A stretch of 64,000 nucleotides of DNA from Bordetella parapertussis (GTDB lineage Bacteria > Pseudomonadota > Gammaproteobacteria > Burkholderiales > SG8-41): contig CAMDRT010000015.1 in assembly GCA_945906815.1 (NCBI GenBank), positions 1,584 through 65,583 of the forward strand, read 5' to 3'. A program made the translations under genes and the position numbers. Positions within the stretch are counted from its first letter, which is position 1. Every line of letters begins with the position of its first letter. The notes beneath the pieces were generated by a model. It worked only from the letters and a program-made list of their open reading frames with translations. It did no database searches and was not told where the DNA came from. Positions 1 to 60,593 of this stretch are shown here, one piece after another.

Positions 1-1075
1 GTTGCCACAAGCGCCGCCACGAAAACACACTGAGGCGGCGGTAGAACAACGCAATTAACAGCAAAGCGACCGTCGCATGCACCAGCAGCAGGCCCGGCAC
101 CAGCGCGATACGCGATTGCGCTATATACGCCTGCACCACCGACAACAGATTAACGTAGACCATGTAAACCAATACCGCGATAATCAGGTTCATCGAACGC
201 CCGGCACGGGGATTAACGAAAGCCAGCGGTATCGCCAGCAGCGCCAGCAGGAGCGCGCTCACCGGCAGCCCGATGCGCCACGACAATTCACCCAGGTGGC
301 GCGGCCCGCCCTGCTCCAGCAACGCCAGCGTGTGCGTATTTTTGGTGCCCGGCGCGCGCAGCGCTTCACGCGCCTCAATGCGCATGGCGTGGCGCTCGAA
401 TTCATAAATCCTGAAATCTGCGCGGCCCGGCTCACCCTCGTAACGGTGCCCATTCAGCAACACCAGAAAGCGATCACCATTGGGCGCGGTTTCCTGAAAC
501 CCTTGCCGCGCCACCATGACGCCGACTTTGCCGTGCTGCGTGGAACTCACAAATACGTTGGCGACGTGATTGTCGCTGCCGGCTACCGCTTCTACAAAAT
601 AAACGCGGTCGGCCTGCCGCGATTCGCGAAACACACCCGGCAACAGGGAAGATGCATCGTCGCGGCTGTCGAGCATTTTGCGGTAGTCCTCGGCCTTGCC
701 CGCAGCCCACGGCGACAGGCCTAGCCCCAGCAGCGCAATAGTAAACACCAGAGGCAGCGCGAACATCAGCACCGGCTTGATCCAGCGCGCAAGACTCAAG
801 CCGCCGGAAAACCACACCACCATTTCCGAATCGCGGTAGGCACGGCTGAGAGTCATCAGCACGGCTATGAACAGCGTCAACGACAGCAGCGACGGCAGCA
901 ATCCGATCGAGGTAAAGCCCAGCAATGTGAGCACACTGGTCGAAGTAATCGAGCCGCCGGCCGCCTGCGCCAGCAAGCGCACCAGTTGCGTGGTGAGCAC
1001 TATGCCCAGCAACACCAGAAAAGTGGCTAGCGCAGTACTGCTTAACTCGCGCAGCAGGGTCTTGTGAAATAGCAT
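1..1075 (-). CDS. lptF: LPS export ABC permease LptF (YjgP/YjgQ family); C-terminal few codons run off the window
   Basis: My own minus-strand translation from ATG 1075 reads MLFHKTLLRELSSTALATFLVLLGIVLTTQLVRLLAQAAGG... through ...ALFYRRLSVFSWRRLWQ with no stop. It is missing from the ORF track because it reaches the window edge. It is divergent from pepA, as in the classical lptF/pepA-holC-valS arrangement. Confidence 0.75.
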   Translation of the reverse strand, partial: MLFHKTLLRELSSTALATFLVLLGIVLTTQLVRLLAQAAGGSITSTSVLTLLGFTSIGLLPSLLSLTLFIAVLMTLSRAYRDSEMVVWFSGGLSLARWIKPVLMFALPLVFTIALLGLGLSPWAAGKAEDYRKMLDSRDDASSLLPGVFRESRQADRVYFVEAVAGSDNHVANVFVSSTQHGKVGVMVARQGFQETAPNGDRFLVLLNGHRYEGEPGRADFRIYEFERHAMRIEAREALRAPGTKNTHTLALLEQGGPRHLGELSWRIGLPVSALLLALLAIPLAFVNPRAGRSMNLIIAVLVYMVYVNLLSVVQAYIAQSRIALVPGLLLVHATVALLLIALFYRRLSVFSWRRLWQ

Positions 1076-1183
1076 GCGGGCGTTTTGCTTTTCGTGGAAA
1101 AACCGCCGATAATCAGAGCCCTATCGCCGCTAATTTTCGATGCGTTGCGCTGAGTTTCAATGTGTTTCGAGGAGGAGTCTGCC

Positions 1184-2677
1184 GTGGAATTTAGCACAAA
1201 AAGTATGGCGCCGGGATTGTCAAAAAGCGGCTGCGTGGTGGTCGGTGTATTCGAATCACGCAAGCTTTCGGCACCTGCTGCCGCACTCGATCGCGTGGCA
1301 AAGGGTTATCTCACGCAAGTCGTGAAAAGCGGCGACATGGACGGGCGCGCCGGTAGCGTGTTGTTACTGCGCCAGGTACCCCACACCGCCTGCGAACGCG
1401 TGTTGTTGGCCGGACTGGGGCCGGAAGCATCGTTCAACGAAAAAGCATTTCGCAGCGCGCTGGGTAGCGCGCTGCGCGCTGTCAGCGCCACCGGAGCGGT
1501 GGATGCGCAATTTCATCTTACCGCGCTGGACGCGGGCGCGTCAGACATCACCTGGCGCGTCACACAGGCGGCCACGCTGGCCATCGACACGGCCTATCGC
1601 TTTGAACAAATGAAAAGCAAGCGCGAGCATCCGCCCGCGGCTTTGCGCCAACTCACTTTTGCCTACGCCCAGGCCAGCGAACACCAAGGTGCGCTGCGCG
1701 GGCTCGCGCAAGGCGTCGCCTTGGGTCACGGCGTGAGCCTCGCCAAGGATCTGGGCAATCTGCCGGGCAATGTGTGTACGCCCGCTTACCTCGCGCGTGA
1801 AGCGCGCGCACTCGGCAAGCGCTACAAAATGAAAGTCAAAGTGCTGGAACGCGCCGACATGCAAAAACTCGGCATGGGCTCACTATTGTCCGTGGCGCGC
1901 GGCAGCGCAGAACCCCCCAAGCTGATTGTGCTTGAATATAACGGCGGAGCACGGCATCAAAAGCCGGTGGTGCTGGTCGGCAAAGGCGTTACCTTCGACA
2001 CCGGCGGCACCTCGCTCAAGCCCGCGGCGGAAATGGACGAAATGAAATTCGACATGAGCGGCGCGGGCAGCGTGTTGGGCACCTTGCGCGCCATTGGCGA
2101 AATGCGCCTGCCGCTCAACGTGGTCGGCATTATTCCCGCCACCGAAAACATGCCCGGCAGCCGTGCCACCAAACCCGGCGATATCGTCACCAGCATGTCG
2201 GGGCAGACGGTGGAGATTTTGAATACCGATGCCGAAGGGCGTTTGATCCTGTGCGATGCGCTCACCTATGCCGAACGTTATGCGCCGGCGGCAGTGATCG
2301 ACATCGCCACGCTCACCGGCGCGTGCGTCATCGCGCTCGGCCATGTGGTCAGCGGTCTGTTCGCCAACGACGAACCCCTGGCGCATGAAATTCTTGCGGC
2401 AGGAGACACCGTACACGACCGCGCGTGGCGCCTGCCGCTGCACGATGAATACCAGGATCAACTGAAAAGCAATTTCGCCGATTTCGCCAACATCGGCGGG
2501 CGTCCGGCGGGCGCAGTGACCGCGGCCTGCTACCTGTCGCGTTTCGCCAAGAAATTCAAATGGGCGCATCTGGATGTCGCGGGCACCGCGTGGAAATCGG
2601 GCAAGGAGAAAGGCTCCAGTGGCCGGCCAGTGCCGTTACTGACCCAGTTCCTGATCGGCCGCGCAGCACAGAAATGA
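1184..2677 (+). CDS. pepA: leucyl aminopeptidase PepA (M17)
   Basis: The ORF aligns along its length with M17 aminopeptidases (VGKGVTFDTGG, NTDAEGRL, ATLTGA). The likely start is GTG 1184 (MEFSTKS, matching the canonical PepA N-terminus), preceded by GGAGGA at 1171. The track ORF starts at 1160. Confidence 0.9.
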   Translation: MEFSTKSMAPGLSKSGCVVVGVFESRKLSAPAAALDRVAKGYLTQVVKSGDMDGRAGSVLLLRQVPHTACERVLLAGLGPEASFNEKAFRSALGSALRAVSATGAVDAQFHLTALDAGASDITWRVTQAATLAIDTAYRFEQMKSKREHPPAALRQLTFAYAQASEHQGALRGLAQGVALGHGVSLAKDLGNLPGNVCTPAYLAREARALGKRYKMKVKVLERADMQKLGMGSLLSVARGSAEPPKLIVLEYNGGARHQKPVVLVGKGVTFDTGGTSLKPAAEMDEMKFDMSGAGSVLGTLRAIGEMRLPLNVVGIIPATENMPGSRATKPGDIVTSMSGQTVEILNTDAEGRLILCDALTYAERYAPAAVIDIATLTGACVIALGHVVSGLFANDEPLAHEILAAGDTVHDRAWRLPLHDEYQDQLKSNFADFANIGGRPAGAVTAACYLSRFAKKFKWAHLDVAGTAWKSGKEKGSSGRPVPLLTQFLIGRAAQK

Positions 2678-2688
2678 TAACCGTTATA

Positions 2689-2722
2689 ATATAAATTATT
2701 GTTATTAATCAATAATTTATAT
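2689..2722 (+). terminator. pure A/T hairpin after pepA (13-bp stem, 8-nt loop)
   Basis: TATAAATTATTG (2690-2701) pairs with CAATAATTTATA (2710-2721) as a perfect inverted repeat in a ~45-nt AT island. Its function as a terminator is uncertain because the stem is A/U only. Confidence 0.3.
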
Positions 2723-2766
2723 AGATACCACGAGCGTGCGTCGCCCCCCGCCCAGCCCCCAAACGC

Positions 2767-3201
2767 ATGACCCAGATCGATTTCTATACCCACGCCGGCA
2801 GCAAGCTGGATGTCGCATGCCGGCTCGCCGCCAAAGCGTACACGCAGGGTCTGCGTGTCGCTGTGCTGTGCCCCGACGCCGTAACCGCGCAATCTTTTGA
2901 CCGCATGCTGTGGAGCGCACCGCCGTTGGCGTTTGTGCCGCATTGCAGTGCTGCTCACCCGCTCGCCGCGCGCACGCCCATCGTCGTCGATCACGAAGGC
3001 ATCGAGCCCGCGCATGACCAGGTACTGTTGAATCTGCGTGCTGAATGGCCGCCGCGGTTCAGCCGTTTTCAGCGCTTGATTGAAATCGTCAGCGCGGACG
3101 CCGCCGAGAGCGAGCGCGCCAGCGCACGGGCGCGCTTCAAGTTTTATCGCGATCGCGGTTACCCGATCCGCACCCACGATCTTTCCGGCCTGAAGTCGTA
3201 A
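2767..3201 (+). CDS. holC: DNA polymerase III chi subunit
   Basis: A 144-aa ORF (MTQIDFYTH...FDRMLWS..FVPH) resembles HolC and occupies the conserved position between pepA and valS. Confidence 0.8.
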
Positions 3202-3205
3202 TCCC

Positions 3206-6200
3206 ATGGCCCAGGACCAGGACAAAGGTGACGAAATTCTCGCGCGCGCCGACGCGCTGATCGAGCGTCACAAGCGGCCACCGCCACCAGCGCGCACCAC
3301 CGCTGCGCCGCCCGCCGCTGAGTTGACGCTGTCAGACGACGATGGCATCCCCTTGTTGACCGACGTGGCGCTACCCGTTTCTGCACCCGGGCGCGACGCC
3401 ATCGCGCCTGCTGCTGGGGTGATATCGCGGGTGCAAAACCAGAACATGGAGCACACCGCTTATTTACGCGTGATGTCGCAAGTCGATGATCGCATCACCA
3501 ACGTGGTACGGCAGCGCGTGCTGCCCGAAATCGGTTCCGCGTTGGATCACGCACTGACGCGCATTGCCGATGATCTGAAAGCCGGCATCGGTGACATGGT
3601 ACGCAGTTCAGTGGAGGACGCCCTGCGCACGCACCTCGCCACGCAACTGAGCACCCAACTGGGCACGCAACTGAACGCACCAGGGCATGCATTGCCCAAA
3701 CCCGAAGGCGCCGCACACGACACTGCAATGGCGCCTCCTCCCCTATCACCTACCCCCGGTAAACCCATGGAACTCGCCAAGAGCTTTGAACCAGCCGCGA
3801 TCGAAGCGCACTGGTATCCCGAATGGGAGAAAAGCGGTTATTTCAACGCCGGCGCGGACACCGCAAAGCACGACAACTATTGCATATTGCTGCCGCCGCC
3901 CAACGTCACCGGCACACTGCACATGGGCCACGCATTCCAGCACACACTGATGGATGCGTTAACGCGTTATCAGCGCATGCGCGGCAACAACACGCTGTGG
4001 CAGCCCGGCACTGACCATGCCGGCATCGCCACGCAAATCGTGGTGGAACGCCAGCTGGAAGCGCAGAACATATCGCGCCACGATCTTGGCCGTGACCCGT
4101 TCGTCGAGCGCGTGCGGCAATGGAAAGAGACGTCCGGCTCCACCATCACGCGCCAGATGCGCCGGCTCGGCAGTTCCTGCGACTGGACGCGCGAGCGCTT
4201 CACCATGGACGAAGGGCTGTCGCGCACCGTCACTGAAACCTTCGTGCGCTTGCACGAACAAGGCTTGATCTACCGCGGTAAACGGCTGGTCAACTGGGAT
4301 CCGGTGCTACAAAGCGCGGTGTCAGACCTGGAAGTGGAGTCGATTGAAGAAGACGGCAAGCTATGGCACATCCGCTACCCGTTTGCTGCGGGCAGGGAGG
4401 GCTATCTGGTGGTCGCCACCACCCGTCCTGAAACGATGCTGGGCGATGTCGCCGTGGCGGTGAATCCTGCCGATGAGCGCTACAGCGCACTGATCGGTTG
4501 CAAAGTCGTGCTGCCGCTGTGCGGGCGCGAAATTCCTGTGATTGCCGATGACTTTGTGGATGCCGCCTTCGGCACCGGCTGTGTGAAAATTACCCCGGCG
4601 CACGATTTCAACGACTATCAGACCGGCCTGCGTCACCAGCTTGAAGCAATCAGCATTCTGACGCTCGACGCAAAAATCAACGACAACGCGCCGCAGGCGT
4701 ATCGTGGTCTCGACCGCTTTGCAGCGCGCGAGCGCGTGCTTGCCGACCTGGAAGCGCAGGGTTTGCTGGATAAAACCATGCCGCATAAGCTGATGGTGCC
4801 GCGCTGCGGACGCACCGATGCGATTGTCGAGCCCATGCTCACCGATCAGTGGTTCATCAAAATGGAATCGCTGGCGCAACGCGGACTGGATGCCGTCGCG
4901 CTCGGGCAGATCAAATTCGTACCCGAAAACTGGGCCACTACCTACAATCAGTGGCTCACCCACATTCAGGATTGGTGTATTTCGCGCCAGTTGTGGTGGG
5001 GTCATCGCATCCCTGCCTGGTACGACGCCGAAGGTAACATCTACGTCGCGCGCAGCCAGGCAGAAGCCCTCGCGCAGTATGACGAAAAATTGCCCGGGCG
5101 GCTCGATGCCGGCGAAAAAGTAGCGGCCGCGGCGCTGCGTCAAGATGAAGACGTGCTCGATACCTGGTACTCCTCGGCGTTATGGCCGTTCTCCACGCTC
5201 GACTGGACGCCGGATTACCCGGCAAAATCCAATCCCGCACTGGATCGTTATCTGCCCTCGTCGGTGCTGGTGACCGGCTTTGACATCATTTTTTTCTGGG
5301 TAGCACGCATGGTGATGATGACACTGCACTTCACCGACAAAGTGCCCTTCCACGAGGTGTATGTACATGGCCTGATCCGCGATGCGGAAGGCCAGAAAAT
5401 GTCAAAATCCAAAGGCAATGTGCTCGACCCGCTGGACATAGTGGATGGCATCACGCTGGATGCACTGCTCGCCAAACGCACGGCAAACCTGCTGGACCCG
5501 CGTCAGGCGGAAAAAATCGCCGCCGCCACCCGCAAACACTTCCCCGATGGCATCAGCGCATTCGGCACCGATGCGTTGCGCTTTACCTTCGCCAGCCTCG
5601 CCGCCCCCGGCCGTGACATCAAATTCGATCTCCAGCGCTGCGACGGCTACCGCAATTTCTGCAATAAATTATGGAATGCGACGCGCTTTGTGTTGATGAA
5701 CTGCGATGGCAAGGATGTGGGCCTGGATGACACCTCGACGCTGGCGTATTCCAGCGCCGATCAATGGATGATCAGCCGCCTGCAGCGCGCAGAAGCCGAG
5801 GTGACCAGGGCCTACAGCGAATACCGTTTTGACAATCTCGCGCGCGCCATCTACACGCTGGTGTGGGACGAATACTGCGACTGGTACGTGGAATTCGCCA
5901 AAGTGCAGCTCAACACAGGCACCGACGACCAGCAGCGCGCCACACGCCGCACGCTGGTGCGCGTACTGGAAGCTATGCTGCGGCTGGCGCATCCAGTGAT
6001 GCCGTTTATCACGGAAGAACTGTGGCAAATCGTCGCGCCCCTGGCGAATAAATCCGGGCCGTCGATCATGCTGCAGGCGTATCCGGATGCCGATGCCACG
6101 CGTATCGACGAGGCCGCGGAGCGCGATATCGACAGCCTCAAGCAACTGATCAACGCCTGCCGCACCTTGCGCAGCGCAATGAATTTGCAGCCGGGGCAGA

Positions 6201-26562: not shown

Positions 26563-26591
26563 AAGAAAAAGGGCCGTGGAATCCACGGCCC
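26563..26591 (-). terminator. rho-independent terminator of the fmt-like gene
   Basis: GGGCCGTGG-AAT-CCACGGCCC (26571-26591) is followed on the minus strand by UUUUUCUU (A-run 26566-70). Confidence 0.6.
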
Positions 26592-26629
26592 CTGGCAAGG
26601 AACAACGCCACATATTGCTTGGGCGTCAC

Positions 26630-27562
26630 TCAGCTGTCGAACACTATACCGTTCGCAATATTATTCACTTTGGCAAACTCTGCGCCAGACAGTTTTTTGC
26701 CGTCTTCGCCACGAGCGCGCAGCACTTCTATCGTGCCACCCTGAGTGGTGACACGAAAGCTTTGCTCACCCACTGCGGAAATCTCGCCTATTTTGCCGGC
26801 GACATCCGCAAAACGGCGGGACGGATGCTTGCGTGCATCGAATATCTGCACTTTCTTGCCATTGAGCATGGTCCACGCGCCGGGCGCGGGGTTGCAGGCA
26901 CGAATCAGGTTGTAGACGGAATCCACGTGGCTGGCCCAATGAATACGCGACTCACTCGCGCGGCACCAGCCCTCGTAGCTCGCCTTCGATTCGTCCTGCA
27001 CCGTCTCGCTGTGTTTGCCCGCAAACACCAGATCCGCGGCTTCGAGCATGGCTTTTACGCCCAGCGGAAAAAGATGGTTGAAATAAACATCGCCCAGGGT
27101 GTCATCGGGGCCTATGGCGCATGTTTTTTGCAGCACCACCGGGCCTTCGTCCAGACCTTCATTCGGGCGAAAAATGGTTAATCCGGTTTGCGTGTCGCCG
27201 CGCATGATCGGCCAGTTGATCGACGATGGCCCGCGGTATTTTGGCAGCAGCGACGGGTGATATTGAATCGTGCCCAGACGCGGCAAATGCACAAACGTAT
27301 CCGGCGCGAATTGCAGCACATAGGCCATGATGCCGATGTCCACACTCAAGCTTTTCAGCGCCGCGTGCGCATCCGGTTCGCGCAGCGATTTAAACTGGAA
27401 CACTTTGAGATTTTTTTCCTCGGCAGCAGCGCGCACGGGGTCGGGCCGGGCGCCCGGTTTTTCCGGTGCGCAGAACACGCCGGCGACTTCATCGCCGCGC
27501 GCCAGAAAAGCATCCAGCACTGCTTTGCCAAAATCCTGCTGGCCAATAATTGCGATTTTCAT
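26630..27562 (-). CDS. formyltransferase-family protein (Fmt / 10-formyl-THF dehydrogenase N-terminal hydrolase-like)
   Basis: MKIAIIGQQDFGKAVLDAFLARGDEVAGVFCAPEKPG... resembles the N-terminal formyltransferase fold, with an Fmt_C-like C-terminal half. The start is ATG 27562. The substrate is unknown. Confidence 0.65.
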   Translation of the reverse strand: MKIAIIGQQDFGKAVLDAFLARGDEVAGVFCAPEKPGARPDPVRAAAEEKNLKVFQFKSLREPDAHAALKSLSVDIGIMAYVLQFAPDTFVHLPRLGTIQYHPSLLPKYRGPSSINWPIMRGDTQTGLTIFRPNEGLDEGPVVLQKTCAIGPDDTLGDVYFNHLFPLGVKAMLEAADLVFAGKHSETVQDESKASYEGWCRASESRIHWASHVDSVYNLIRACNPAPGAWTMLNGKKVQIFDARKHPSRRFADVAGKIGEISAVGEQSFRVTTQGGTIEVLRARGEDGKKLSGAEFAKVNNIANGIVFDS

Positions 27563-27571
27563 AGTGTTTGA

Positions 27572-27668
27572 GTGAACGAGTGAACGAGTGAACAAGTGAA
27601 CGAGTCATTTCACGGGGCGCGGTGGAAGGGTTTTACCCGTTCACGCGTTCACCCGTTCACCCGTTCAC
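27572..27668. repeat. inverted array of tandem octamers: 4x GTGAAC(G/A)A facing 4x NCGTTCAC
   Basis: Units lie at 27572-79, 80-87, 88-95 and 96-603, and at 27638-44, 46-52, 54-60 and 62-68, with a strict 8-nt period. The arms are complementary for 7 of 8 nt per unit and the spacer is ~34 nt. The array is intercistronic between frc and the fmt-like gene. Confidence 0.85.
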
Positions 27669-27689
27669 GCCCTTTGGAACTTTAGAACT

Positions 27690-28958
27690 TCAAACCTTCT
27701 TCGGTGGCAACGAGAACGCGCCTGCTGACTTCAACTGCGCAACCTTGTCGTCCGCGTAGCCCAGCACTTGCTTTAACACTTCATCGGTATGCTCGCCCAG
27801 CGTGGGCGAACGCTGGATGACTGCCGGTGACGCCGACAACTTGATCGGCATGCCGACGTTCCACCACTTGCCGCGCTGCGGATGATCGAGTTCGACGTAC
27901 ATATCGCGGCCGCGCACATGCTCGTCGGTCGCCAGGTCCGCGGTGGACATAATCGGCCCGCACGGCACATCCAGCGGATTGAGTAGCGCCATGAATTCGC
28001 GCTTGCTGTAGTTCGACGCAAACTGGGTAATCAGCGCCCACATCACCTGCTGATTTTTGCGCCGGTCGCCAATCTTGGCAAAGCGCGGGTCTGTTGCCAG
28101 ATCCGGCAAACCCAGGTCGGGCCCGATGCGTTTGGCAAGGCCGTCCCATACCGCTTCCTGCACCACCACATAAATGTAATCGTTCGGCCCGCCCGGCTTG
28201 CATTGAATGGCGTTGCCCAACTGCCCGCCGCCGGAATCATTGCCCGCGCGCGGCACATCACCCATACCCTGCGCTGTGGGCACGGAATACTCGGACAACG
28301 ACTGGTGCTGGAGCCGCTGATGATCACGCCATTTCACGCGGCACAGATTCATTACCCCGTCCATCATTGCCACTTCGACGTATTGACCTTCACCACTGCG
28401 GTTAGCTTGATGCAGCGCCGCCAACAATCCGATCGCCAGATGCAAGCCTGTGCCGGAGTCGCCTATCTGCGCGCCGGTGACAAACGGCGCGCCTTCGGGA
28501 ACGCCGGTGGTGCTCATCGCGCCACCCATCGCCTGCGCCACGTTTTCGTAGGCTTTGAAATCCGAATACGGGCCGCTGGAACCGAAACCCTTGATCGATC
28601 CCATCACGATCTTCGGGTTAAGTTGGTGGATTTTTTCCCAGGTGAACCCGAAGCGATCGAGCACCCCGGGGCCGAAGTTTTCCATGATGATGTCGCATTT
28701 CATCAGCAAATCGATGAAGACTTGTTTGCCTTCCGGGTGCTTCATGTTCACCGTGATCGAACGCTTGTTGCAATTCAACATGGTGAAATAAAGACTGTCG
28801 GCGTTCGGCACATCGCGCAACTGGCCGCGCGTGGCATCGCCCTGCGGCGGCTCGAACTTGATGACGTCCGCGCCCATCCACGCCAGCAACTGCGAGCAGG
28901 TCGGACCCGCTTGCACGTGCGTCATGTCCAGGATTCGAACACCTTTTAATGCTTCCAT
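27690..28958 (-). CDS. frc: formyl-CoA:oxalate CoA-transferase
   Basis: [36 protein letters not shown]...[12 protein letters not shown]...ENFGPG...[10 protein letters not shown] is collinear with Oxalobacter Frc as I recall it. The start is ATG 28958. Confidence 0.9.
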
Positions 28959-29157
28959 GCTGCTCTCCTGAAATACAGCGGCGGATGAACGATGGTATTG
29001 TTCGTTCCATCCCACCACGTCATTGCGGCGCTCAGCAACGCGTTGAGGCCGTCCGAATAAATAGCGCTAATTGTACAGTGCAGACACGCCGCACCATCCC
29101 CAAACCGTTACCTGCTGCGAGAGGGCGCAACTATAGGTAATGGCCGCCACCCTAGCC

Positions 29158-29243: not shown

Positions 29244-29852
29244 ATGACCCAGCTTGCGCTGCACCCCCAGTCCAAAATCATACGCCTGCAATTGCGGCAA
29301 AACCTGGTGCTGACCAACCTGGGCGTGGCGCAATGGAACGAATTTGAACCGTTGCTGGAAATTATCGACTACACCAAGGGCGAAACACTGGAACTACAGG
29401 GCACGCACGCGATGGAGCAGTATTTCGTCATCGATGGCATTTTAAAACGGACGGTCTCCAATGCCCAGGGCAAGGAAATGATTTTGCGCTTTGCCGCGGA
29501 AAGCGACATCGACACCAGTTACGCCGCGTGGCGGCTGAAAATGCCGATGCCCTATTCGATACGCGCGGTAACCAAAGTGCGTGCGGCCAAGCTCTCGATG
29601 CTGCAGTGGGCGGCGTTTCTCGAACGGCATGCCAAAATCAAGGGCGAGTTCGAGCTCGAAGTGATGAAGCTGATGAGCGAAGTCATGGCACACACCATCA
29701 CGCTGCATCTGTTGAATGCGCCGGGACGGGTGCAACGCTTTATGCGCAAACACGCTGATCTGGTCGCACGACTACCCAAGAAAGAACTGGCCTCTTATTT
29801 GAATTTATCACCGGAAACGCTCAGCCGATTGAAGCGGCGCGGGAAGATTTAG
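29244..29852 (+). CDS. Crp/Fnr-family transcriptional regulator (cNMP-binding-like domain plus C-terminal HTH)
   Basis: A 202-aa ORF with beta-roll-like YFVIDGILKRTVSNAQGKEMILRF and a C-terminal HTH, ELASYLNLSPETLSRLKRRG. Confidence 0.75.
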   Translation: MTQLALHPQSKIIRLQLRQNLVLTNLGVAQWNEFEPLLEIIDYTKGETLELQGTHAMEQYFVIDGILKRTVSNAQGKEMILRFAAESDIDTSYAAWRLKMPMPYSIRAVTKVRAAKLSMLQWAAFLERHAKIKGEFELEVMKLMSEVMAHTITLHLLNAPGRVQRFMRKHADLVARLPKKELASYLNLSPETLSRLKRRGKI

Positions 29853-29882
29853 CGCTTTAAATAGAGGCACCCTGCTGCAAAA

Positions 29883-29896
29883 TTGACCGGGATCAA
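29883..29896. promoter_or_regulatory. Crp/Fnr-type box TTGACCGGGATCAA upstream of oxc
   Basis: It fits TTGAC-N4-ATCAA and lies 83-96 nt upstream of the oxc ATG 29979. Confidence 0.55.
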
Positions 29897-29978
29897 GAGT
29901 ACATTTAGCGGCCGCGCCCTATGATACTTCGAGTGAAAAACACGTTCAACACACGGCAAGCAGACGAGGCATCTCACC

Positions 29979-31715
29979 ATGACAACTGACGCACCCTCAC
30001 CCGCACAGACCGACGGATTCCATCTGCTCATCGATGCGCTCAAACTCAACGGCATCGACACCATCTTTGGCCTGCCCGGCATCCCCATCACCGACCTCAC
30101 CCGCATGGCGCAGGCCGAGGGCATACGCATGATTTCTTTCCGCCATGAGCAAAATGCCGGCCACGCCGCTGCCATCGCCGGCTTCCTGACGCAAAAGCCC
30201 GGCATCTGCCTGACGGTATCCGCCCCCGGCTTTCTCAACGGACTTAACGCACTGACCAATGCCACCACCAACTGCTTCCCGATGATCCTCATCAGCGGCT
30301 CCAGCGAGCGCGAGATCGTCGATCTGCAACAGGGCGATTACGAAGAGATGGACCAGTTGGCCATCGCCAAGCCCTTGTGCAAAGCGGCCTTTCGCGTGCT
30401 GCACGCAGAGGACATCGGTGTGGGCGTCGCTCGCGCCATCCGTGCCGCAGTCTCCGGTCGTCCAGGCGGCGTCTACCTCGATCTACCAGCCAAGCTGTTC
30501 GCGCAGAGCATGGATGCAGAAGCCGGCAGAAAATCGCTGATCAAGGTGGTCGATCCCGCGCCGCGCCAGATTCCGGCGCCGGACGCGGTGCAGCGCGCGC
30601 TGGATCTTTTGAAAAACGCCAAGCGTCCGCTGATTGTGCTGGGCAAGGGTGCCGCCTATGCGCAGGCCGACGCGGCGATCCGCGAACTGGTCGAAAAAAC
30701 CGGCATTCCGTACCTGCCGATGTCCATGGCCAAGGGCCTGCTGCCCGACACGCACGAGCAGTCCGCAGCCGCCGCGCGCTCCTATGTGCTGCCTGAAGCA
30801 GACGTAGTGATGCTGATCGGTGCACGCCTGAACTGGCTGCTGTCGCATGGCAAGGGCAGAACCTGGGGCGGCAAATCCCCCAAGGACTGGGGTGGTCAAA
30901 AATACGTCCAGATCGACATTTCGCCGCAGGAGGCAGACAGCAACGTGCGCATCGACGCACCGGTGGTCGGCGACATCGGTTCCTGCGTAGCGGCCATGCT
31001 TAACGGCATTAACGCCTCAGGTGGCAGTTGGCCCAAGCCCTCCGCAGACTGGCTGGGCGCCATAGACCAGCGCAAGAGCACCAACATCGCGAAAATGGCC
31101 GAGACGCTGGCCAAAAATCCCGCGCCGATGAATTACCACAGCGCGCTCAATGTCATGCGCGACATCATCAAAGCCAACCCAGATGCCCTGCTGGTCAACG
31201 AGGGCGCCAACGCACTCGACTTCACGCGCAGCATTGTCGACATGTACCAGCCGCGTAAGCGTCTGGACGTCGGCACCTGGGGCATCATGGGCATCGGTAT
31301 GGGTTTTGCCGTCGCGGCCGCCGTGGTCAGCGGCCAACCGGTGATCGCGGTGGAAGGCGACAGCGCCTTTGGCTTCTCCGGCATGGAAGTCGAGACCATC
31401 TGCCGCTACAACCTGCCGGTGTGCGTGGTGGTCTTCAATAACAACGGCGTCTACCGCGGCACCGACGTCAATCCCAGCGGCGGCACCGACGTGGCGCCCA
31501 CGGTGTTCGTCAAAAATGCGCGTTACGACAAGCTGATGGAGGCTTTCGGCGGTGTGGGTGTACATGCCACCACCCCGGCGGAGTTGCGCAAGGCCGTGGA
31601 AGAGGCTGTCCGATCGCGCAAGCCTACGCTGATCAATGCAGTCATCGATGAAACCGCTGGCACTGAGAGCGGCCGCATCACCAGCCTGAATCCGACCGCC
31701 GCGAAAAAGAAATAA
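29979..31715 (+). CDS. oxc: oxalyl-CoA decarboxylase (ThDP-dependent)
   Basis: [27 protein letters not shown]...[12 protein letters not shown]...[19 protein letters not shown]...[22 protein letters not shown] matches OXC closely. Confidence 0.92.
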
Positions 31716-40407: not shown

Positions 40408-40567
40408 AGAGTCCCTAACATACTGAAACCCGAAGGGCTGGCGCGAGTTTTGCCTCAGGGCTTTGTCACGCTCCTCACTAATATTCGCGATATTAGCTTC
40501 GTCGCGTTTCGCGCCCTGAGCCAAAATCGTGCCAGCGCAGCACGGGTTTCAGTATGTTAGGGACTCT
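40408..40567. repeat. 160-bp palindromic MITE/REP-like element with perfect 25-bp terminal inverted repeats
   Basis: AGAGTCCCTAACATACTGAAACCCG (40408-32) is the exact reverse complement of 40543-67. The centre is a second palindrome, CTAATAT-TCGCG-ATATTAG (40478-96). The inner arms are about three-quarters complementary by eye. No ORF or transposase is present. Confidence 0.85.
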
Positions 40568-42774: not shown

Positions 42775-44468
42775 AAATCACCCGCCAGGCCTATGCCGAA
42801 ATGTTCGGCCCCACCACCGGTGATCGTGTGCGCCTCGCCGATACCGAACTGTGGATCGAGGTCGAGAAGGACTACACCCTTTACGGCGAAGAAGTGAAAT
42901 TCGGTGGCGGCAAGGTCATCCGTGACGGCATGGGGCAGAGCCAGTTGGTTTCCGCGAAAGTTGCCGACACCGTGATCACCAACGCCTTGATCGTGGATCA
43001 CTGGGGCATCGTCAAGGCCGACATCGGCATCAAGAACGGACGCCTCTGGAAAATCGGCAAAGCCGGCAATCCCGACATCCAGCCCGGCATCACCATCCCC
43101 ATCGGCGCGGGCACGGAAATCATCGCGGGTGAAGGCATGATCGTTACCGCCGGCGGCATCGACACCCACATCCATTTTATTTGCCCGCAGCAAATTGAAG
43201 AGGCCTTGATGTCGGGCGTGACCACCATGATCGGCGGCGGCACCGGGCCCGCCACGGGCACCTTCGCCACCACCTGCACGCCGGGGCCGTGGCATATGCA
43301 TGCCATGCTGGCCGCGGCGGATGCGTTTCCGATGAACCTGGGTTTTTTCGGCAAAGGCAATGCCAGCAGGCCCGCGCCGCTCAAGGAGCAAATCGAAGCC
43401 GGCGCCATTGGCCTGAAACTGCATGAAGACTGGGGCACCACGCCGGCCGCTATCGACAACTGCCTGGCGGTGGCCGACAAAATGGATGTGCAGGTGGCGA
43501 TCCACACCGATACCCTGAACGAATCGGGGTTTGTGGAAACCTCGGTGGCAGCGATGAAAGGCCGCGCAATCTGCACCTTTCATACCGAGGGTGCGGGCGG
43601 CGGCCATGCGCCTGACATCATCAAGGTGTGCGGTGAACCCAACGTGATGCCGTCGTCTACCAACCCGACCATGCCGTACACGGTCAACACCATCGCCGAA
43701 CATCTCGACATGTTGATGGTGTGCCATCACCTGGACCCGGCGATCGCCGAGGATGTGGCGTTTGCCGAATCGCGCATTCGCAAGGAAACCATCGCCGCCG
43801 AGGACATCCTGCATGATCTGGGCGCGTTTTCGATGATGTCTTCCGATTCACAGGCGATGGGGCGCGTGGGCGAAGTCATCATCCGCACCTGGCAGACCGC
43901 GCACAAAATGAAAATCCAGCGCGGCAGCTTGAAGGGCGACCCGCAAGAAAATGATAACGCGCGGGTGAAGCGCTTCATCGCAAAATACACGATTAATCCT
44001 GCGATAGCGCACGGCGTATCGCACGTCGTTGGCTCCATCGCGGAAGGAAAACTGGCTGATCTGGTGCTATGGAAACCGGCATTCTTTGGCGTAAAGCCGT
44101 CGCTGATCATCAAAGGCGGCATGATCGCGGCGGCGGCGATGGGGGATCCCAATGCCTCGATCCCGACGCCGCAGCCGGTGCATTACCGGCCGATGTTCGG
44201 CAGCTTCGGCAAAGCGCTGCGCACCTCGCTCACGTTTGTGTCGAAGGCGGCGCTGAAAAATCCGGCGATCGCAGCGCTGGGTTTATCCAAGCCGCTGGAG
44301 GCAATACGCAACGTTCGAAAAATCGGCAAGAAAGACATGGTGCTCAACGACTGGCTGCCGAAAATCGAGGTTGATGCCGAGACCTATGAGGTGCGCGCCG
44401 ACGGTGAATTGCTGGTGTGTGAGCCCGCCACAGTACTGCCGATGGCGCAACGTTATTTTCTGTTCTGA
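42771..44468 (+). CDS. ureC: urease alpha subunit
   Basis: [20 protein letters not shown] and MVCHHLD are nickel-site motifs. Confidence 0.95.
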
Positions 44469-51370: not shown

Positions 51371-54172
51371 TCAAATCGCAGCCATCGCCTGCCCGCCGCC
51401 GTAGCTCGACACCGGCGTCAACTCGCCGCCTTTCATGACCTTAACCGCGCAATATTTGAACTCCGGTATCTTGCCCACCGGATCCAGCGCTGGGTTGGTC
51501 AGCAAATTCGCCGCCGCTTCGTAAAAACAGAACGGAATGAATACCGCGCCGCGCGGCGTGCCGTCGTCGGCGCGCGCGTACAGCGACACTATGCCGCGGC
51601 GCGAAGCGACGCTGATCACCTCGCCCGGCTGCGCACCCAGCGCGTCCAGATCGAGCGGGTGTATCAGCACGGTCGCTTCCGGTTCGATGGCGTCGAGCAC
51701 CGACGCACGCCGCGTCATCGCGCCGGTGTGCCAATGTTCGAGTTGCCGGCCGGTGATCAGCACGAACGGATATTCCGTATCCGGCCGCTCGTTGGCGGGA
51801 ATGATATCCGCCGGAACGAATCGCGCTCGCCCTGTCGGCGTAGGAAATTTATCAATAAAAACAATGGCCTGCCCAGGATCCCCTTCCTTCTCGCAAGGAT
51901 AGGTGACACTGCTTTCGCGCTCCAGCCGCTCGTAAGTAATGCCGGCGATGCTGTTCATGCCCAGGCGCATTTCGTTGAACACATCGGCCGGGCCGCTGTA
52001 ATTCCAGTCGCACCCCAGGCGACGCGCGAGTTCCTGAATAATCCACAGATCCGGCTTGGCCTCGCCCGGCGCGTCTAGCGCTTTGCGGCCGAGCTGCACC
52101 ATGCGATCGGTGTTGGTGACCGTGCCGTCTTTTTCCGGCCACGCGGTGGCGGGCAAAATCACATCGGCGTAGTAACAGGTTTCGGTGAGGAAAATTTCCT
52201 GCACCACCAGCATGTCGAGCTTGGCCAGCGCCTCGCGCGCATGGTGCGCGTCGGGGTCGGACATCGCCGGATTTTCACCCATGATGTACATGCCGTTGAT
52301 GTTGCCGTCGAGCGTGGCGTGAATGATTTCGACCACCGTCAGCCCCGGCTTCGGGTCCAGCTTGGCGCCCCACAATTTTTCAAAGCGCGCGTGCGCTTCA
52401 GGATTATCTACGCGCTGATAGTCCGGAAACACCATCGGTATCAGCCCGGAGTCGGATGCGCCCTGCACATTGTTTTGCCCGCGCAACGGATGCAGCCCGG
52501 AGCCGGGTTTACCGATCTGCCCGGTCATCAGCGTCAGCGCAATCAGACAACGTGCATTGTCGGTGCCGTGCACGTGCTGGGAAATGCCCATACCCCACAG
52601 GATCATCGAGCCTTTGGAGGTGGCGTACAGCCGGGCGACTTCCTTGATGGTCTCGGCGGGTATGCCGCACAGCGGCGCCATGGCTTCGGGGCTGTAGCCT
52701 TCGACATTCTTCCTTAAATCTTCGTAGCCTATGGTGCGCGAGGCGATGAAAGCTTCGTCAACCAGCCCTTCATGCACGATGGTGTGCATCATGGCGTTCA
52801 ACAACGCCACATCGGTGTCGGGCTTGAATTGCAGATAGTGGGTGGCGTGACGCGATAATTCCGAACGGCGCGGATCGGCATAAATGAATTTCGCGCCTTT
52901 TTTCACCGCGTTTTTAATCCACGTTGCCGCCACCGGATGGTTGGAAATCGGGTTCGCGCCGATCAGGAATATGACCTCGGCAACGCCCACATCGCTCACC
53001 TGATTCGATACCGCACCGGACGCCACGCCTTCCATCAGAGCCGCCACCGACGACGCATGGCACAGCCGCGTGCAATGATCGACGTTGTTGCTGCCAAAGC
53101 CGGTACGCACCAGCTTCTGGAACAAATACGCTTCTTCGTTGCTGCCCTTGGCCGAGCCAAAACCAGCGAGCGCCGTTTTGCCTTTGTGATCGCGGATTTC
53201 TTTCAGCTTGTCGGCCGCGAAATCCAGCGCTTCTTCCCACGTTGCCTCACGAAAGTACTCGAGCGGATGCGCCGGGTCCATGGTGAAGTCGGCGTGCTTG
53301 GGCACCCCCGGCTTACGGATCAACGGCTGGGTCAGTCTTTGTTTATGGCTGACATAATCAAATCCGTAGCGACCCTTCACGCACAGCCGATTGTGGTTGG
53401 AGGGGCCGTCGCGCCCATCCACACTGATGATTTTGTTGTCCTTGATGTTGTAGGTCAGCTGGCAGCCGACGCCGCAGTACGGGCACACCGAGTGCACCTG
53501 TTTGTCCGGTTTGATCAGACCGGCTTCGCGCGCGGGCATCAGTGCGCCGGTCGGGCACGCTTGCACACACTCGCCGCACGCCACACAGGTGGAGTCACCC
53601 ATGGCATCGTCGATATCGAACACGATTTTCGAATGTTCGCCGCGAAACGCGTAACCGATGACGTCGTTGACCTGTTCCTCACGACAAGCACGCACGCAGC
53701 GCGTGCACTGTATGCACGAATCGAGATTGACCGCGATGCCGTGATGCGACAGATCAGCCTGCGGCTGATGGCGTGCCTCGAAGCGCGGCTTGCCCACCTG
53801 CAGTTTGCCCGCCCATAGATCCAGCTCGGATTGCCGCGTGTGGCGCTTTTCCGGCATGTCAGAGAGCAGCAGTTCCAGCACCATCTTTTGTGATTTGACT
53901 GCGCGCTCACTGTCGGTGGTGACTTCCATGCCCTGGGCCGGCGCGCGGCAGCACGAGGCCGCGAGCACGCGCTCGCCTTTGACCTCGACCACACAGGCTC
54001 GGCAATTGCCGTCGGGGCGCATGCCTTCCTTGTAGCAAAGATGCGGGATCTCCACGCCATAACGCTTCGCGGTTTGAATGAGGGTTTCGTTAGCGTCGCC
54101 CACCACATCTTTGCCATTGAGCTTGAACTCGATGGGCATGGCGTTTAGTTCTTCTTTGGTGATTGCGGTCAT
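51371..54172 (-). CDS. fdsA: NAD-dependent formate dehydrogenase alpha subunit (2Fe-2S / 4Fe-4S / Mo-bisPGD)
   Basis: A 933-aa ORF. A NuoG-like N-terminus (CYKEGMRPDGNCRACVVEV, CIQCTRCVRAC, CVACGECVQACP, CPYCGVGC) is followed by a molybdopterin oxidoreductase domain. There is no in-frame stop, so this is a Cys-type rather than Sec-type enzyme. Confidence 0.88.
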   Translation of the reverse strand: MTAITKEELNAMPIEFKLNGKDVVGDANETLIQTAKRYGVEIPHLCYKEGMRPDGNCRACVVEVKGERVLAASCCRAPAQGMEVTTDSERAVKSQKMVLELLLSDMPEKRHTRQSELDLWAGKLQVGKPRFEARHQPQADLSHHGIAVNLDSCIQCTRCVRACREEQVNDVIGYAFRGEHSKIVFDIDDAMGDSTCVACGECVQACPTGALMPAREAGLIKPDKQVHSVCPYCGVGCQLTYNIKDNKIISVDGRDGPSNHNRLCVKGRYGFDYVSHKQRLTQPLIRKPGVPKHADFTMDPAHPLEYFREATWEEALDFAADKLKEIRDHKGKTALAGFGSAKGSNEEAYLFQKLVRTGFGSNNVDHCTRLCHASSVAALMEGVASGAVSNQVSDVGVAEVIFLIGANPISNHPVAATWIKNAVKKGAKFIYADPRRSELSRHATHYLQFKPDTDVALLNAMMHTIVHEGLVDEAFIASRTIGYEDLRKNVEGYSPEAMAPLCGIPAETIKEVARLYATSKGSMILWGMGISQHVHGTDNARCLIALTLMTGQIGKPGSGLHPLRGQNNVQGASDSGLIPMVFPDYQRVDNPEAHARFEKLWGAKLDPKPGLTVVEIIHATLDGNINGMYIMGENPAMSDPDAHHAREALAKLDMLVVQEIFLTETCYYADVILPATAWPEKDGTVTNTDRMVQLGRKALDAPGEAKPDLWIIQELARRLGCDWNYSGPADVFNEMRLGMNSIAGITYERLERESSVTYPCEKEGDPGQAIVFIDKFPTPTGRARFVPADIIPANERPDTEYPFVLITGRQLEHWHTGAMTRRASVLDAIEPEATVLIHPLDLDALGAQPGEVISVASRRGIVSLYARADDGTPRGAVFIPFCFYEAAANLLTNPALDPVGKIPEFKYCAVKVMKGGELTPVSSYGGGQAMAAI

Positions 54173-54184: not shown

Positions 54185-54319
54185 GTGAACGGGTGAACGA
54201 GTGAACGGGTAACCCCCTCGCGCTTTGCAACCGTTAGCGCGGACGAAAAAGGCGAAGCAAGCTACTCTCCGCAGACCAAACAATTTCTCGTTCACTCGTT
54301 CACCCGTTCACCCGTTCAC
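54185..54319. repeat. second inverted array of GTGAACG octamers: 3 (+1 degenerate) x GTGAACGR facing 4x NCGTTCAC
   Basis: Units lie at 54185-92, 93-200 and 201-208, and at 54289-95, 297-303, 305-311 and 313-319, with an 8-nt period and a ~80-nt spacer containing its own CGCGCT/AGCGCG hairpin. The stop codon of fdsGB (54316-18) lies inside the last unit. Confidence 0.85.
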
Positions 54320-56004
54320 TGCACTTCTTTGGGAAAATACTTCATTACACTGCGTATCGGATTCGGTGCCGCCTGGCCCAGGCCGCAGATCGACGCATCG
54401 GCCATGGCGCCCGAGAGTTCTTCAAGCAAGCCTTGATCCCAGCTGGATTTTGCCATCAGGTTCAATGCCTTGGTGGTTCCTACGCGGCAGGGCGTGCATT
54501 GCCCACAGGATTCTTCGGCGAAAAACTTCATGATGTTGCGCGCAGCGGCACTGGCTTTGTCGTGCTGCGACAAAATGATTACCGCCGCCGAGCCGATGAA
54601 ACAGCCGTATTGATTGAGCGTATCAAAATCCAGTGGAATATCGCCCATCGCCGCCGGCAGTATGCCGCCCGACGCACCCCCCGGCAGATAGGCGTAAAAC
54701 GCATGTCCGGGCAGCATGCCGCCGCAGTACTCGGCGATGAGTTCGTTCACGGTAATGCCCGCAGGCGCCACATGCACGCCCGGCTTTTGCACGCGGCCCG
54801 AGACCGAAAACGAACGCAGGCCCTTGCGCCCGTTGCGCCCGTGCGCGGCAAACCAGTCCGCCCCTTTTTCGACGATGTCACGCACCCAGTAGAGCGTCTC
54901 CATGTTGTGCTCCAGCGTCGGACGGCCGAATAAGCCTACCTGCGCCACATAGGGCGGACGCAGCCGCGGCATGCCGCGTTTGCCTTCGATGGATTCGATC
55001 ATCGCGGATTCTTCGCCGCAGATGTAGGCGCCCGCACCGCGCCGCAGAAATATCGACGGCAGTGGGCAGGGCGGATTTTTTTGCAGCGCCTGGATTTCTT
55101 TTTCCAGTATCCCGCGCACCCCAGCATACTCGTCGCGCAGGTAAATATAGACTTCGGAAATCTGCACCGCCCACGCGGCGATGAGCACGCCTTCGAGAAA
55201 GCGATGCGGATCGCGTTCGAGGTAATAGCGATCCTTGAAAGTGCCGGGCTCGCCCTCGTCGATATTCACCGCCATCACGCGCGGCCCTTGTTCGCCGCGC
55301 ACGATGCGCCACTTGCGCCCCGCCGGAAATCCCGCGCCGCCCAAACCGCGCAGACCGGAATGCTCCATCGCTTGGATCAAATCTTCGGCGTCGCGTGTGC
55401 CGGCCAGGCAAGCGGCGACTAGCGCATAACCGCCTTGCTTGCGATACGCCGTGTAGCCGAGGTATTTTCCCAGCGCACAGCGGGATTGGTTGGCCTCGGC
55501 CAGCGCTTTCACGCTTTCAACGGTCGCATGCGCCACCGGGTTCTGTCCCACTACCGCCACCGGCGCCTGTTCGCAACGCCCGACGCACGGCGCGGCAATC
55601 ACCCGCACGCCGTCACCGAGCGCGCGTTTGAGTTCAGTGAGCAGCGGATTCGCTCCGCCTAGTTCGCAAGACAATGAATCGCACACGCGCACCGTCAGCG
55701 CGGGCGGCGGTGTGTCACCTTCTTTGACGATGTCAAAATGGTGATAAAAACTCGCCACCTCGAATACCTCGGTCATCGCGAGCTTCATTTCGCGCGCGAG
55801 TGCTGCGATGTGCGCCGCGGAGATGTGACCGAATTTATCTTGTATCTTGTGCAGATGTTCGATCAGCAGATCGCGACGGCGCGGGGCATCACCCAACAAG
55901 GTCTGCACTTGCACCAACGCGTCTGCTTCAACCGCGCGCCCTTTCGGTCTGCCGCGACGGCTACCACCGTCCCCACGCCCTTTATTGAGCTTGCCTTGTT
56001 CCAA
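54316..56004 (-). CDS. fdsB: formate dehydrogenase diaphorase subunit, fused NuoE-like (FdsG) plus NuoF-like (FdsB)
   Basis: The N-terminal ~150 aa are NuoE-like (HLHKIQDKFGHISAAHIAALAREM..., CDSLSC...C..C). They are followed by a NuoF-like domain (GLRGLGGAGFPAGRKW, ESCGQCTPCR). Confidence 0.8.
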   Translation of the reverse strand: MEQGKLNKGRGDGGSRRGRPKGRAVEADALVQVQTLLGDAPRRRDLLIEHLHKIQDKFGHISAAHIAALAREMKLAMTEVFEVASFYHHFDIVKEGDTPPPALTVRVCDSLSCELGGANPLLTELKRALGDGVRVIAAPCVGRCEQAPVAVVGQNPVAHATVESVKALAEANQSRCALGKYLGYTAYRKQGGYALVAACLAGTRDAEDLIQAMEHSGLRGLGGAGFPAGRKWRIVRGEQGPRVMAVNIDEGEPGTFKDRYYLERDPHRFLEGVLIAAWAVQISEVYIYLRDEYAGVRGILEKEIQALQKNPPCPLPSIFLRRGAGAYICGEESAMIESIEGKRGMPRLRPPYVAQVGLFGRPTLEHNMETLYWVRDIVEKGADWFAAHGRNGRKGLRSFSVSGRVQKPGVHVAPAGITVNELIAEYCGGMLPGHAFYAYLPGGASGGILPAAMGDIPLDFDTLNQYGCFIGSAAVIILSQHDKASAAARNIMKFFAEESCGQCTPCRVGTTKALNLMAKSSWDQGLLEELSGAMADASICGLGQAAPNPIRSVMKYFPKEVQ

Positions 56005-60374: not shown

Positions 60375-60425
60375 GACGCCAGAGAGCACAGCCCATCAAC
60401 AACACCCATCACAAAACCGATTAAT

Positions 60426-60503
60426 CACAGATAAACACGGATAAGGTCAAAATCTCCGGGAAGAGGATTGGGTGTTATCTGTGTTCATCCGTGTTTATCT
60501 GTG
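60426..60503. repeat. 17-bp perfect inverted repeat CACAGATAAACACGGAT / ATCCGTGTTTATCTGTG with a 44-nt spacer
   Basis: Seen directly between the convergent prpD-like and Bug genes. The right arm is preceded by a partial direct copy (GTGTTATCTGTG). Confidence 0.75.
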
Positions 60504-60593
60504 GTTAAAAACCTTTTTCTATCGAACCTGCTGGATATTCGCCGCCTTCACCACCTTGAACCATTCGTCACGTCGCGCTGGATCACGTTGCGA

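Follow-up and report, generated by a model that had tools for sequence, protein, structure and literature searches.

The window analysed here is a 64,000-nucleotide stretch of contig CAMDRT010000015.1 (assembly GCA_945906815.1, labelled Bordetella parapertussis), and the subject of this analysis is an inverted array of tandem octamers at positions 27572-27668, between a formyl-CoA transferase gene (frc) and a gene for an fmt-like formyltransferase. A sister element lies at 54185-54319, between fdsB- and fdsA-like genes for subunits of a formate dehydrogenase. Every gene flanking these two copies lies on the minus strand (Table 1).

Octamer hairpins at two operon junctions

Inspection of the letters bears out the original prediction that, at the frc-fmt junction, four GTGAAC(G/A)A units stand opposite four NCGTTCAC units in strict 8-nt phase. 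On the plus strand, positions 27572-27603 read GTGAACGA GTGAACGA GTGAACAA GTGAACGA and positions 27637-27668 read CCGTTCAC GCGTTCAC CCGTTCAC CCGTTCAC. Allowing at most one mismatch, GTGAACGNGTGAAC has 11 matches in the window, all within the two elements, while 0.04 are expected from shuffled sequences. The sister element was also correctly predicted; it has 3 + 4 units, and no array of two or more units was found in the 64 kb beyond these two elements.

The stem had been described as a series of 7-bp blocks, each separated by a single mismatch. This holds for the plus strand, where the mismatches are A x C, but not for the transcribed minus strand. In the sense RNA the 5' arm is of the GUGAACGG type and the 3' arm of the UCGUUCAC type, and because the plus-strand A x C positions become G.U there, the stem is nearly continuous, with 23 bp, one C x U and then 10 bp (~33 bp). 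Folding of the minus strand with its flanks gave a free energy (dG) of -62.6 kcal/mol, compared to -37.1 +/- 3.7 for shuffled sequences (z -6.85); the fold of the sister element (-75.2 kcal/mol, z -4.7) is likewise more stable than expected.

The fmt-like ATG (27562-27560) lies 9 nt from the arm, and the intervening spacer, TCAAACACT, contains no purine-rich Shine-Dalgarno (SD) sequence, both as originally claimed. The position of this start is secure, since all 80 orthologues align from residue 1. In the predicted fold, the spacer is able to pair with the frc-stop region to give an outer 8-bp helix, in which the frc UGA can pair with the UCA immediately 5' of the fmt-like AUG. On the other side of the hairpin, the AAAGGG adjoining the stem is either the remnant of an ancestral SD or a degenerate outer unit. 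In the sister element, the 3' arm ends 12 nt from the fdsA-like ATG, and an AAGGAA SD is present in the gap.

A scan called no intrinsic terminator at the frc-fmt element, whose tail past the 3' arm, TCAAACACTATG, has no T tract. A canonical terminator follows the fmt-like gene and likely marks the end of the frc-fmt transcript, so the element is most likely internal to this transcript.

A small hairpin, GGATGGAACGA-N9-TCGTTCATCC, is present on the minus strand in the frc 5' leader (28983-29012). It overlaps the leader motif TTCATCYGCCGC(A/G)G...TTTTGGAGA-N6-ATG, and its 3' half belongs to the motif TTCATCYGCCGC(A/G)G...GGAGA. This hairpin is real, but its proposed kinship with the octamer repeats, as a mini version of the element, was ruled out because many orthologous loci without GTGAACG repeats share the leader motif. 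This motif probably represents a conserved leader or regulatory element of frc and has no connection with the octamer family.

Table 1. Positions of the two octamer elements and of the genes and signals that adjoin them in the window.
Feature	Position	Strand	Details
frc, formyl-CoA transferase, upstream cistron	27690..28958	-	CoA_transf_3, E 3e-98
Spacer from frc stop to hairpin	27669..27692	-	TGA at 27692-27690; AAAGGG adjoins stem
frc-fmt element, 5' arm (mRNA sense)	27637..27668	-	GTGAACGG GTGAACGG GTGAACGC GTGAACGG
frc-fmt element, loop	27604..27636	-	33 nt; degenerate GTAAAAC/GTCAT unit remnants at both ends
frc-fmt element, 3' arm (mRNA sense)	27572..27603	-	TCGTTCAC TTGTTCAC TCGTTCAC TCGTTCAC
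Spacer from hairpin base to fmt-like ATG	27563..27571	-	TCAAACACT, 9 nt
fmt-like formyltransferase, downstream cistron	26630..27562	-	Formyl_trans_N + Formyl_trans_C
Canonical intrinsic terminator after fmt-like gene	26569..26593	-	11-bp GC-rich stem + T tract
fdsB-like NAD-formate dehydrogenase beta subunit (NuoF-type)	54316..56004	-	Complex1_51K, NADH_4Fe-4S, 2Fe-2S_thioredx
Sister element, 5' arm (mRNA sense)	54288..54319	-	4 units; TGA 54318-54316 in first unit is the fdsB-like stop
Sister element, loop	54209..54287	-	79 nt
Sister element, 3' arm (mRNA sense)	54185..54208	-	3 units
fdsA-like molybdopterin formate dehydrogenase alpha subunit	51371..54172	-	ATG at 54172

A dispersed family at the 3' ends of genes

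The two window copies belong to a larger family. One genome from each GTDB species was scanned for exact pattern matches, a search biased to copies with at least three perfect units, and phased arrays of three or more octamer units were identified at more than 117 loci. Inverted-array copies of the form [GTGAACGR]n-loop-[YCGTTCAC]n number at least 27 beyond the window and occur in at least 14 species-level Betaproteobacteria/Burkholderiales metagenome-assembled genomes (MAGs), including MERI01 RIFCSPLOWO2_12_FULL_62_58, JAQGNC01, JACQOI01, CADECM01, CAWDIV01, PLYS01, a Casimicrobiaceae MAG and several MAGs mislabelled 'Bordetella parapertussis'. The carriers form a clade of uncultured freshwater, soil and groundwater Betaproteobacteria. 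Among the matches listed there are at most 5 loci per MAG; the 64-kb window has 2 copies.

In these copies, of which there are at least 27, the order of the arms is constant, with the GTGAACGR array first and the YCGTTCAC array second. Arms consist of 3-7 units, often in unequal numbers (e.g., 3/4, 7/3 or 5/3), and enclose loops of 16-85 nt with unrelated sequences, giving a consensus anatomy of [GTGAACGR]3-7, variable loop, [YCGTTCAC]3-6. Within the unit GTGAACG is nearly invariant, and position 8 in left arms is G in 60, A in 36, C in 6 and T in 2 cases. The shortest copies (L078 and one metagenome contig) have a canonical apex, GTAAC-CYCGCGCGGGG-TTAC, and longer loops hold unrelated inserts, which often include another GC-rich hairpin ('ccctctcccc...ggggagaggg' type).

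Metagenomic contigs from the source lake give an independent view of copy number. On the frc-fmt locus, summed word depth is 621-3517 for the arms versus 13-35 for the flanks, a 30-150x difference, and positions 27572 and 27668-27674 are the exact points from which many contigs run on into differing flanks. The depth excess and the shared break points together indicate that the arms are highly multi-copy and that the ends of the element are sharp.

To characterize genomic contexts, open reading frames (ORFs) flanking the copies were identified by Pfam scans. Copies were found at tatA-tatB/tatC (the same site in two genomes), nuoK-nuoL, ggt-accA, gatA-gatB, yajC-secD and E2-lpdA junctions, and one lies in a his operon. 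Other Pfam-verified neighbours are nuoCD, ribBA, hrcA, RNase G, guaB, ilvC, YicC, DedA, an aminotransferase, an ABC ATPase, Nfu, SDR, MoCF, FAA hydrolase and tgt. Among the copies listed, none is spanned by an ORF, every one adjoins the 3' end of a gene whose stop codon is either within the element or 0-21 nt off, and the contexts are co-oriented in at least 14 cases, convergent in about 6 and divergent in none. The element is therefore multi-copy and intergenic, occupies gene 3' ends and often lies inside a conserved operon. The original prediction had opposed a device specific to its locus to a generic REP element with dozens of copies in unrelated intergenic regions; given the number of copies and MAGs found and the unrelated junctions they occupy, the copies point to a generic REP-like element, and the locus-specific reading is not upheld.

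The units themselves can end a reading frame. Three GTGAACGN units place a TGA in all three frames, and an element TGA is the stop codon of six independent Pfam-verified genes: fdsB (window and L100), DedA (L039), YajC (L063), an ABC ATPase (L102), SDR (L105) and MoCF (L107). Three-frame stops were also considered as a property of tandem-unit hairpins as a class and rejected, being confined to GTGA-type units and failing for CTCGTTN, ACGCAGATT, GGGAATC and GTTGCTYN (see below).

Of 12 operon contexts, 11 have the downstream start at 2-17 nt from the 3' edge of the element, and an SD is missing from 9 of these 11 starts. The distance is 7 nt for fmt in L024, 14 nt for accA, 10 nt for secD, 17 nt for gatB and 14 nt for lpdA, while the tatB ATG is 2 nt past the copy in L012 (3094-3206) and 5 nt past that in L017 (1209-1314). 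L012 and L017 derive from two species genomes, and the loops of their tatB copies share end sequences (..tgccttac); these copies indicate long-term vertical retention inside the tat operon. A 'split SD' model, wherein an SD 5' of the hairpin is brought near the AUG by folding, was considered for such starts. The window, L012 and perhaps L078 agree with this model, but it is not general, because L024, L019, L063 and L086 do not.

The gene-end position raises the issue of whether the element could be a transcription terminator or attenuator, i.e., a factor-independent hairpin without a U tract that is possibly bidirectional. The copies are very stable GC-containing hairpins just past stop codons, and some of them (L070, L104, L117) lie between convergent genes, as would be expected. 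However, there is no T tract past either arm, and so not the GC-rich stem directly followed by a U tract that typifies intrinsic terminators, even though the same genome has canonical stem plus T-tract terminators such as that at 26593-26569. Moreover, many copies lie inside operons with essential or obligately co-expressed downstream genes (gatB, secD, nuoL, tatB, fdsA, lpdA), where termination would be harmful. We regard this function as highly unlikely.

Orthologous junctions, turnover and mobility

The frc-fmt junction was compared across 80 further metagenome loci with 69-88% amino-acid identity. The GTGAACGR element is missing from nearly all of them, and is therefore dispensable for the frc-fmt operon. 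Most orthologues have a 30-45 nt spacer with an SD, and others a stop-start gap of 0-10 nt; when only relatives without a hairpin are counted, 56 of 72 have an SD and the rest mostly the short gap. About 8 of the 80 loci have other tandem-unit hairpins at the same spot, so that this junction is repeatedly occupied by elements of the same architecture.

These other hairpins consist of CTCGTTN heptamers in L130, L133, L136, L145, L146 and L150, GTGATTC heptamers in L142, and ~10-nt ACGCAGATT units in L118 (2390-2470), the closest relative. They stop 6-9 nt before the fmt-like ATG, or 30 nt before it in L118. An SD-like motif lies between hairpin and ATG in L118 and in the L145/L146/L150 group, and none is seen in L130, L133, L136 or L142.

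Where the octamer element is shared with a relative, its parts differ in conservation. In L100 (~90% identity to the window), the copy at fdsB-fdsA aligns with the window copy over flanks and arms, while the unit numbers differ (5/3 vs 3/4) and the loop is unalignable. L024, at ~75% nucleotide identity, has a copy at frc-fmt in which 58 of 64 arm positions are identical to the window and the loop is weakly similar. Across orthologous copies, then, arms are conserved whereas loops and unit numbers turn over.

These comparisons bear on the initial proposal that the hairpins are a regulatory device for C1/oxalate metabolism, acting either in mRNA processing or stability or as a translational gate, that evolved for frc-fmt and fdsB-fdsA. 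Both window copies do lie in formate-related operons, copies are kept at the same junctions in L024 and L100, and the window copy forms G.U pairs on the sense strand only. Yet the other copies lie in unrelated housekeeping junctions, nearly all orthologous frc-fmt loci have no element, the sense-strand G.U bias is not family-wide (see below), and the arms are multi-copy in the metagenome. The proposal is largely refuted, and we give it almost no weight. What stands of it is a real structure, in a probable frc-fmt transcript, adjoining an SD-less start; what the dispersed copies and the orthologues remove is its specificity for the locus. Given the unrelated contexts, the multi-copy arms and the absence from orthologous junctions, the occurrence of both window copies next to formate or oxalate genes is best explained as coincidence.

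A different explanation for the same distribution is a purely selfish, non-autonomous mobile element (REPIN/RAYT-like or MITE-like), with a transposase acting in trans on the hairpin and the gene-end position reflecting tolerated insertion. Its multiple copies with sharply bounded ends would be consistent with this, as would the patchy occurrence at frc-fmt across relatives, with different unit families at the same junction. The loops that differ wholly between 90%-identical orthologous sites suggest exchange between copies, and three-frame TGA codons together with palindromy would minimise harm. On the other hand, target-site duplications were not found (the longest flank direct repeat averages 1.79 nt, vs 1.72 +/- 0.26 nt at control positions), so the terminal inverted repeats flanked by such duplications that characterize MITEs are not seen. 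The arms are phased octamer arrays and do not have the GTAG-like 5' tetranucleotide of a REP/REPIN head. In the window and 1.25 Mb of fetched loci, tblastn with a RAYT probe gave no match at E < 0.6, although this test is weak. Plasmid sequences contain no match to the element, viral contigs only 7 non-canonical ones, and genomes that have diverged to species level have stably inherited copies at tatA-tatB, fdsB-fdsA and possibly frc-fmt. Overall, we consider a purely selfish origin a serious possibility but an unlikely one.

Other tandem-unit arrays were observed in the course of these searches. Further inverted families occur in the same and other phyla, with units CGCAAAGGA, GTTCAAA, AATGGGY, AAGGMGA, GTGAAGG, AGTGCGTG and TCRAGGA. 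They lie in L016 (1976-2106 and 2535-2640), L020 (2400-2464), L039 (2398-2486), L063 (88-155), L091 (4319-4394 and 6424-6490), L113 (7857-7929) and L010 (642-829, one array nested within another). The octamer GTGAACGN itself also forms long one-directional arrays of up to ~31 units (L023, L030, L058, L081, L094, L115), which occur at many loci of Gemmatimonadota and Bacteroidota genomes (Longimicrobium, Bacteroidales MAGs). Arrays of the same octamer are present in Verrucomicrobia as well, and these non-betaproteobacterial arrays are mostly long and one-directional. The arrays in Gemmatimonadota and Bacteroidota may reflect either common origin or convergence with the betaproteobacterial family.

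Some frc-fmt orthologues have a different kind of insertion. In L119 (2402-2500), a copy of the first ~11 fmt-like codons (ATGAAAATAGCAATCATCGGGCAGCAGGACTTT) lies upstream of the fmt-like start, as it does in L121, L123, L148, L153, L162 and L166. These duplicated codons are followed by a conserved ~67-nt insert (agttccgac...aactttagtctccac...gaaatcttg), and together they make up a 30-codon upstream ORF whose final TGA overlaps the SD of the true fmt-like start. For this arrangement, which has no Rfam match, a leader peptide, an attenuator and a small insertion are candidate explanations.

Several other features of the window were recorded. Divergent from frc, on the plus strand at 29244-31715, are genes for a cyclic nucleotide-binding (CRP/FNR-type) regulator and a thiamine pyrophosphate-dependent enzyme (oxalyl-CoA decarboxylase-like), which complete an oxalate-degradation cluster with frc. 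A minus-strand match to the Rfam family 5_ureB_sRNA at 42920-43203 (105 bits, E 1.5e-26) most likely reflects conserved ureB coding sequence of the urease operon and is not evidence of the Helicobacter antisense small RNA. A perfect 25-nt inverted repeat, AGAGTCCCTAACATACTGAAACCCG, at 40408-40432 and 40543-40567 (arms 110 nt apart) could be a different palindromic or MITE-like element, and a 22-nt inverted repeat, TTAATCACAGATAAACACGGAT, is found at 60421-60442 and 60487-60508 (95% complementary, arms 44 nt apart).

Related repeat classes and interpretation

A literature search found no description of the octamer sequence itself, and Rfam 15 has no family that matches the element at gathering score (only sub-threshold chance matches to miRNA precursors, at <=22 bits). 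The original prediction that this is not a described repeat family is therefore correct for the sequence but not for the architecture, which has been reported before (PMC4692102, PMC2700814, PMC2670836). Like these paired inverted arrays, the family combines at least three phased 7-9 nt units, a convergent partner across a variable spacer, dispersal, and an intergenic position near the end of the upstream ORF. It is the GTGAACGR octamer family that is new.

The closest counterpart is in Geobacter metallireducens, where a first class of sites has four tandem GTTGCTYN octanucleotides per strand (24 pairs, variable spacing), a second has TCTCCGTS[Y] x3 (21 pairs) and a third has MTYCTGA x5 (8 pairs) (Aklujkar et al. 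2009, PMC2700814). All of these sites are intergenic, some lie in operons, including one between proB and proA, and they were proposed as sites for IHF/HU or a global regulator (PMC2700814). In both systems, 3-5 head-to-tail units of 7-9 nt are paired, across a spacer of variable length, with an identical array on the other strand, and copies are many and dispersed, with tens per genome in Geobacter. They differ in unit sequence and phylum, and the Geobacter sites have insertion sequence (IS) elements (ISGme8/9) inserted at a constant distance, something not observed for GTGAACGR copies.

The Geobacter proposal is a precedent for viewing the element as a duplex-DNA array, with two inverted sets of phased 8-bp sites bound cooperatively by a nucleoid-associated or global regulator protein. 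Several properties of the family agree with such a function, namely the strict 8-bp phasing and conservation of the unit (GTGAACG nearly invariant, position 8 a purine) next to free loops, the absence of an RNA-strand bias, and the unequal unit numbers of the arms, which would be disfavoured under pure hairpin constraint. An 8-bp period, however, sets successive sites on different faces of the helix, and the copies lie at gene 3' ends and intercistronic junctions, with no divergent promoter region among those listed. In addition, no candidate protein has been identified, and the Geobacter proposal is itself only hypothetical. We judge a DNA-binding array of this kind to be improbable.

Xanthomonas genomes have GGGAATC heptamers in 70-75 convergent inverted pairs per genome, 89-93% of them intergenic (Rehm et al. 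2015, PMC4692102). These arrays lie a mean of 28 nt from the upstream ORF end, mostly between co-oriented and rarely between divergent ORFs, and they are transcribed, have no IS link and occupy evolutionarily stable sites (PMC4692102). They share with the GTGAACGR family the dispersed, inverted, intergenic arrangement of short tandem units near the end of the upstream ORF. Unlike GTGAACGR, the G-rich heptamers can form G-quadruplexes; their arrays reach 14 units, and the units contain no stop codon.

Among cyanobacterial STRR (short tandemly repeated repetitive) heptamers, there is a hairpin between hupS and hupL for which a role in transcript stability or translational coupling was proposed, though not proven (cited in PMC2670836). 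STRR sequences resemble the present family in forming tandem short-unit hairpins in intercistronic spacers of conserved operons, and differ in their 7-nt period, unit sequences and cyanobacterial hosts, as well as in having many long, unidirectional arrays.

REP, BIME and REPIN sequences of Enterobacteria and Pseudomonas are extragenic, palindromic and highly repeated, and are found at 3' ends and inside operons, all of which they have in common with the octamer family. REP elements stabilise upstream mRNA and lower translation when located within ~15 nt of a stop codon. They differ from the octamer family in being single imperfect palindromes with a conserved GTAG-type head that are tied to RAYT, and not tandem octamers. 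Two REPs in inverted orientation make up a REPIN, and the cognate RAYT, a Y1 HUH transposase, is encoded by a gene with the repeats on either side.

In light of these comparisons, the frc-fmt element is one copy of a generic, dispersed, REP/STRR-like extragenic palindromic repeat that is not specific to formate or oxalate metabolism, and it is probably a co-transcribed and tolerated hairpin. As a whole, we consider this interpretation likely. The repeat would be transcribed together with frc and the fmt-like gene and fold into a ~33-bp mRNA hairpin, occupying what in most relatives is a short, translationally coupled stop-start junction. It may be tolerated because folding would return the frc stop and the SD-less fmt start to proximity. 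Coupling could then occur by reinitiation, or by a terminating ribosome that opens the base of the stem and unmasks the start. As a side effect, the hairpin, whose stem is long enough for either role, could block 3' exonucleases or be cut by RNase III and so uncouple the two halves of the mRNA. Both of these roles are established for REP and phage intercistronic hairpins, and the hairpin may plausibly influence how stable the mRNA is, how it is processed and how the fmt-like gene is translated.

Several points weigh against this interpretation. Contexts other than those of the Pfam-checked ORFs were assigned by a heuristic based on GC content at third codon positions (GC3). At frc-fmt, the window shares the element with L024 and not with L118, which is the closer relative of the two, a pattern that fits either old inheritance followed by loss or repeated insertion. 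Across the family, the G.U-favoured strand compared to the sense strand scores 14:11, and sense versus antisense dG about 9:7. There is thus no family-wide RNA-strand signature, and the hairpin may therefore have its role in DNA, or no role; the sense-strand G.U versus A x C asymmetry of the window copy, a candidate signature of RNA function, was rejected because it is not family-wide. In RNA sequencing runs, neither window locus is present at a usable level, the best evidence being one soil metatranscriptome with 5% of the frc words, and none has the fds locus. Lastly, we infer all of co-transcription, in vivo folding, processing and coupling at frc-fmt from the DNA.

A broader and more speculative idea is that tandem-unit hairpins are a cross-phylum class that homes to operon stop-start junctions, with GTGA-type units supplying stops in three frames. 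In this scheme a folded, 'bridged' junction would replace an SD-based one, such that a ribosome terminating on one side of the stem base would reinitiate at the SD-less start on the other side, and the hairpins would spread by an unrecognised hairpin-specific mechanism that possibly involves single-stranded DNA. At present we think that this generalization has little chance of being correct.

For the genomes concerned, the reading of the element as a generic dispersed repeat means that annotators should not treat the hairpins at frc-fmt and fdsB-fdsA as formate- or oxalate-specific regulators. It also adds an octamer family from uncultured Betaproteobacteria to the little-studied class of paired inverted arrays of 7-9 nt units. 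Finally, the mostly SD-less starts directly behind copies in essential operons (gatAB, yajC-secD, nuo, tat, acc) turn the way in which a downstream cistron is translated across a 30-bp hairpin into a testable question.

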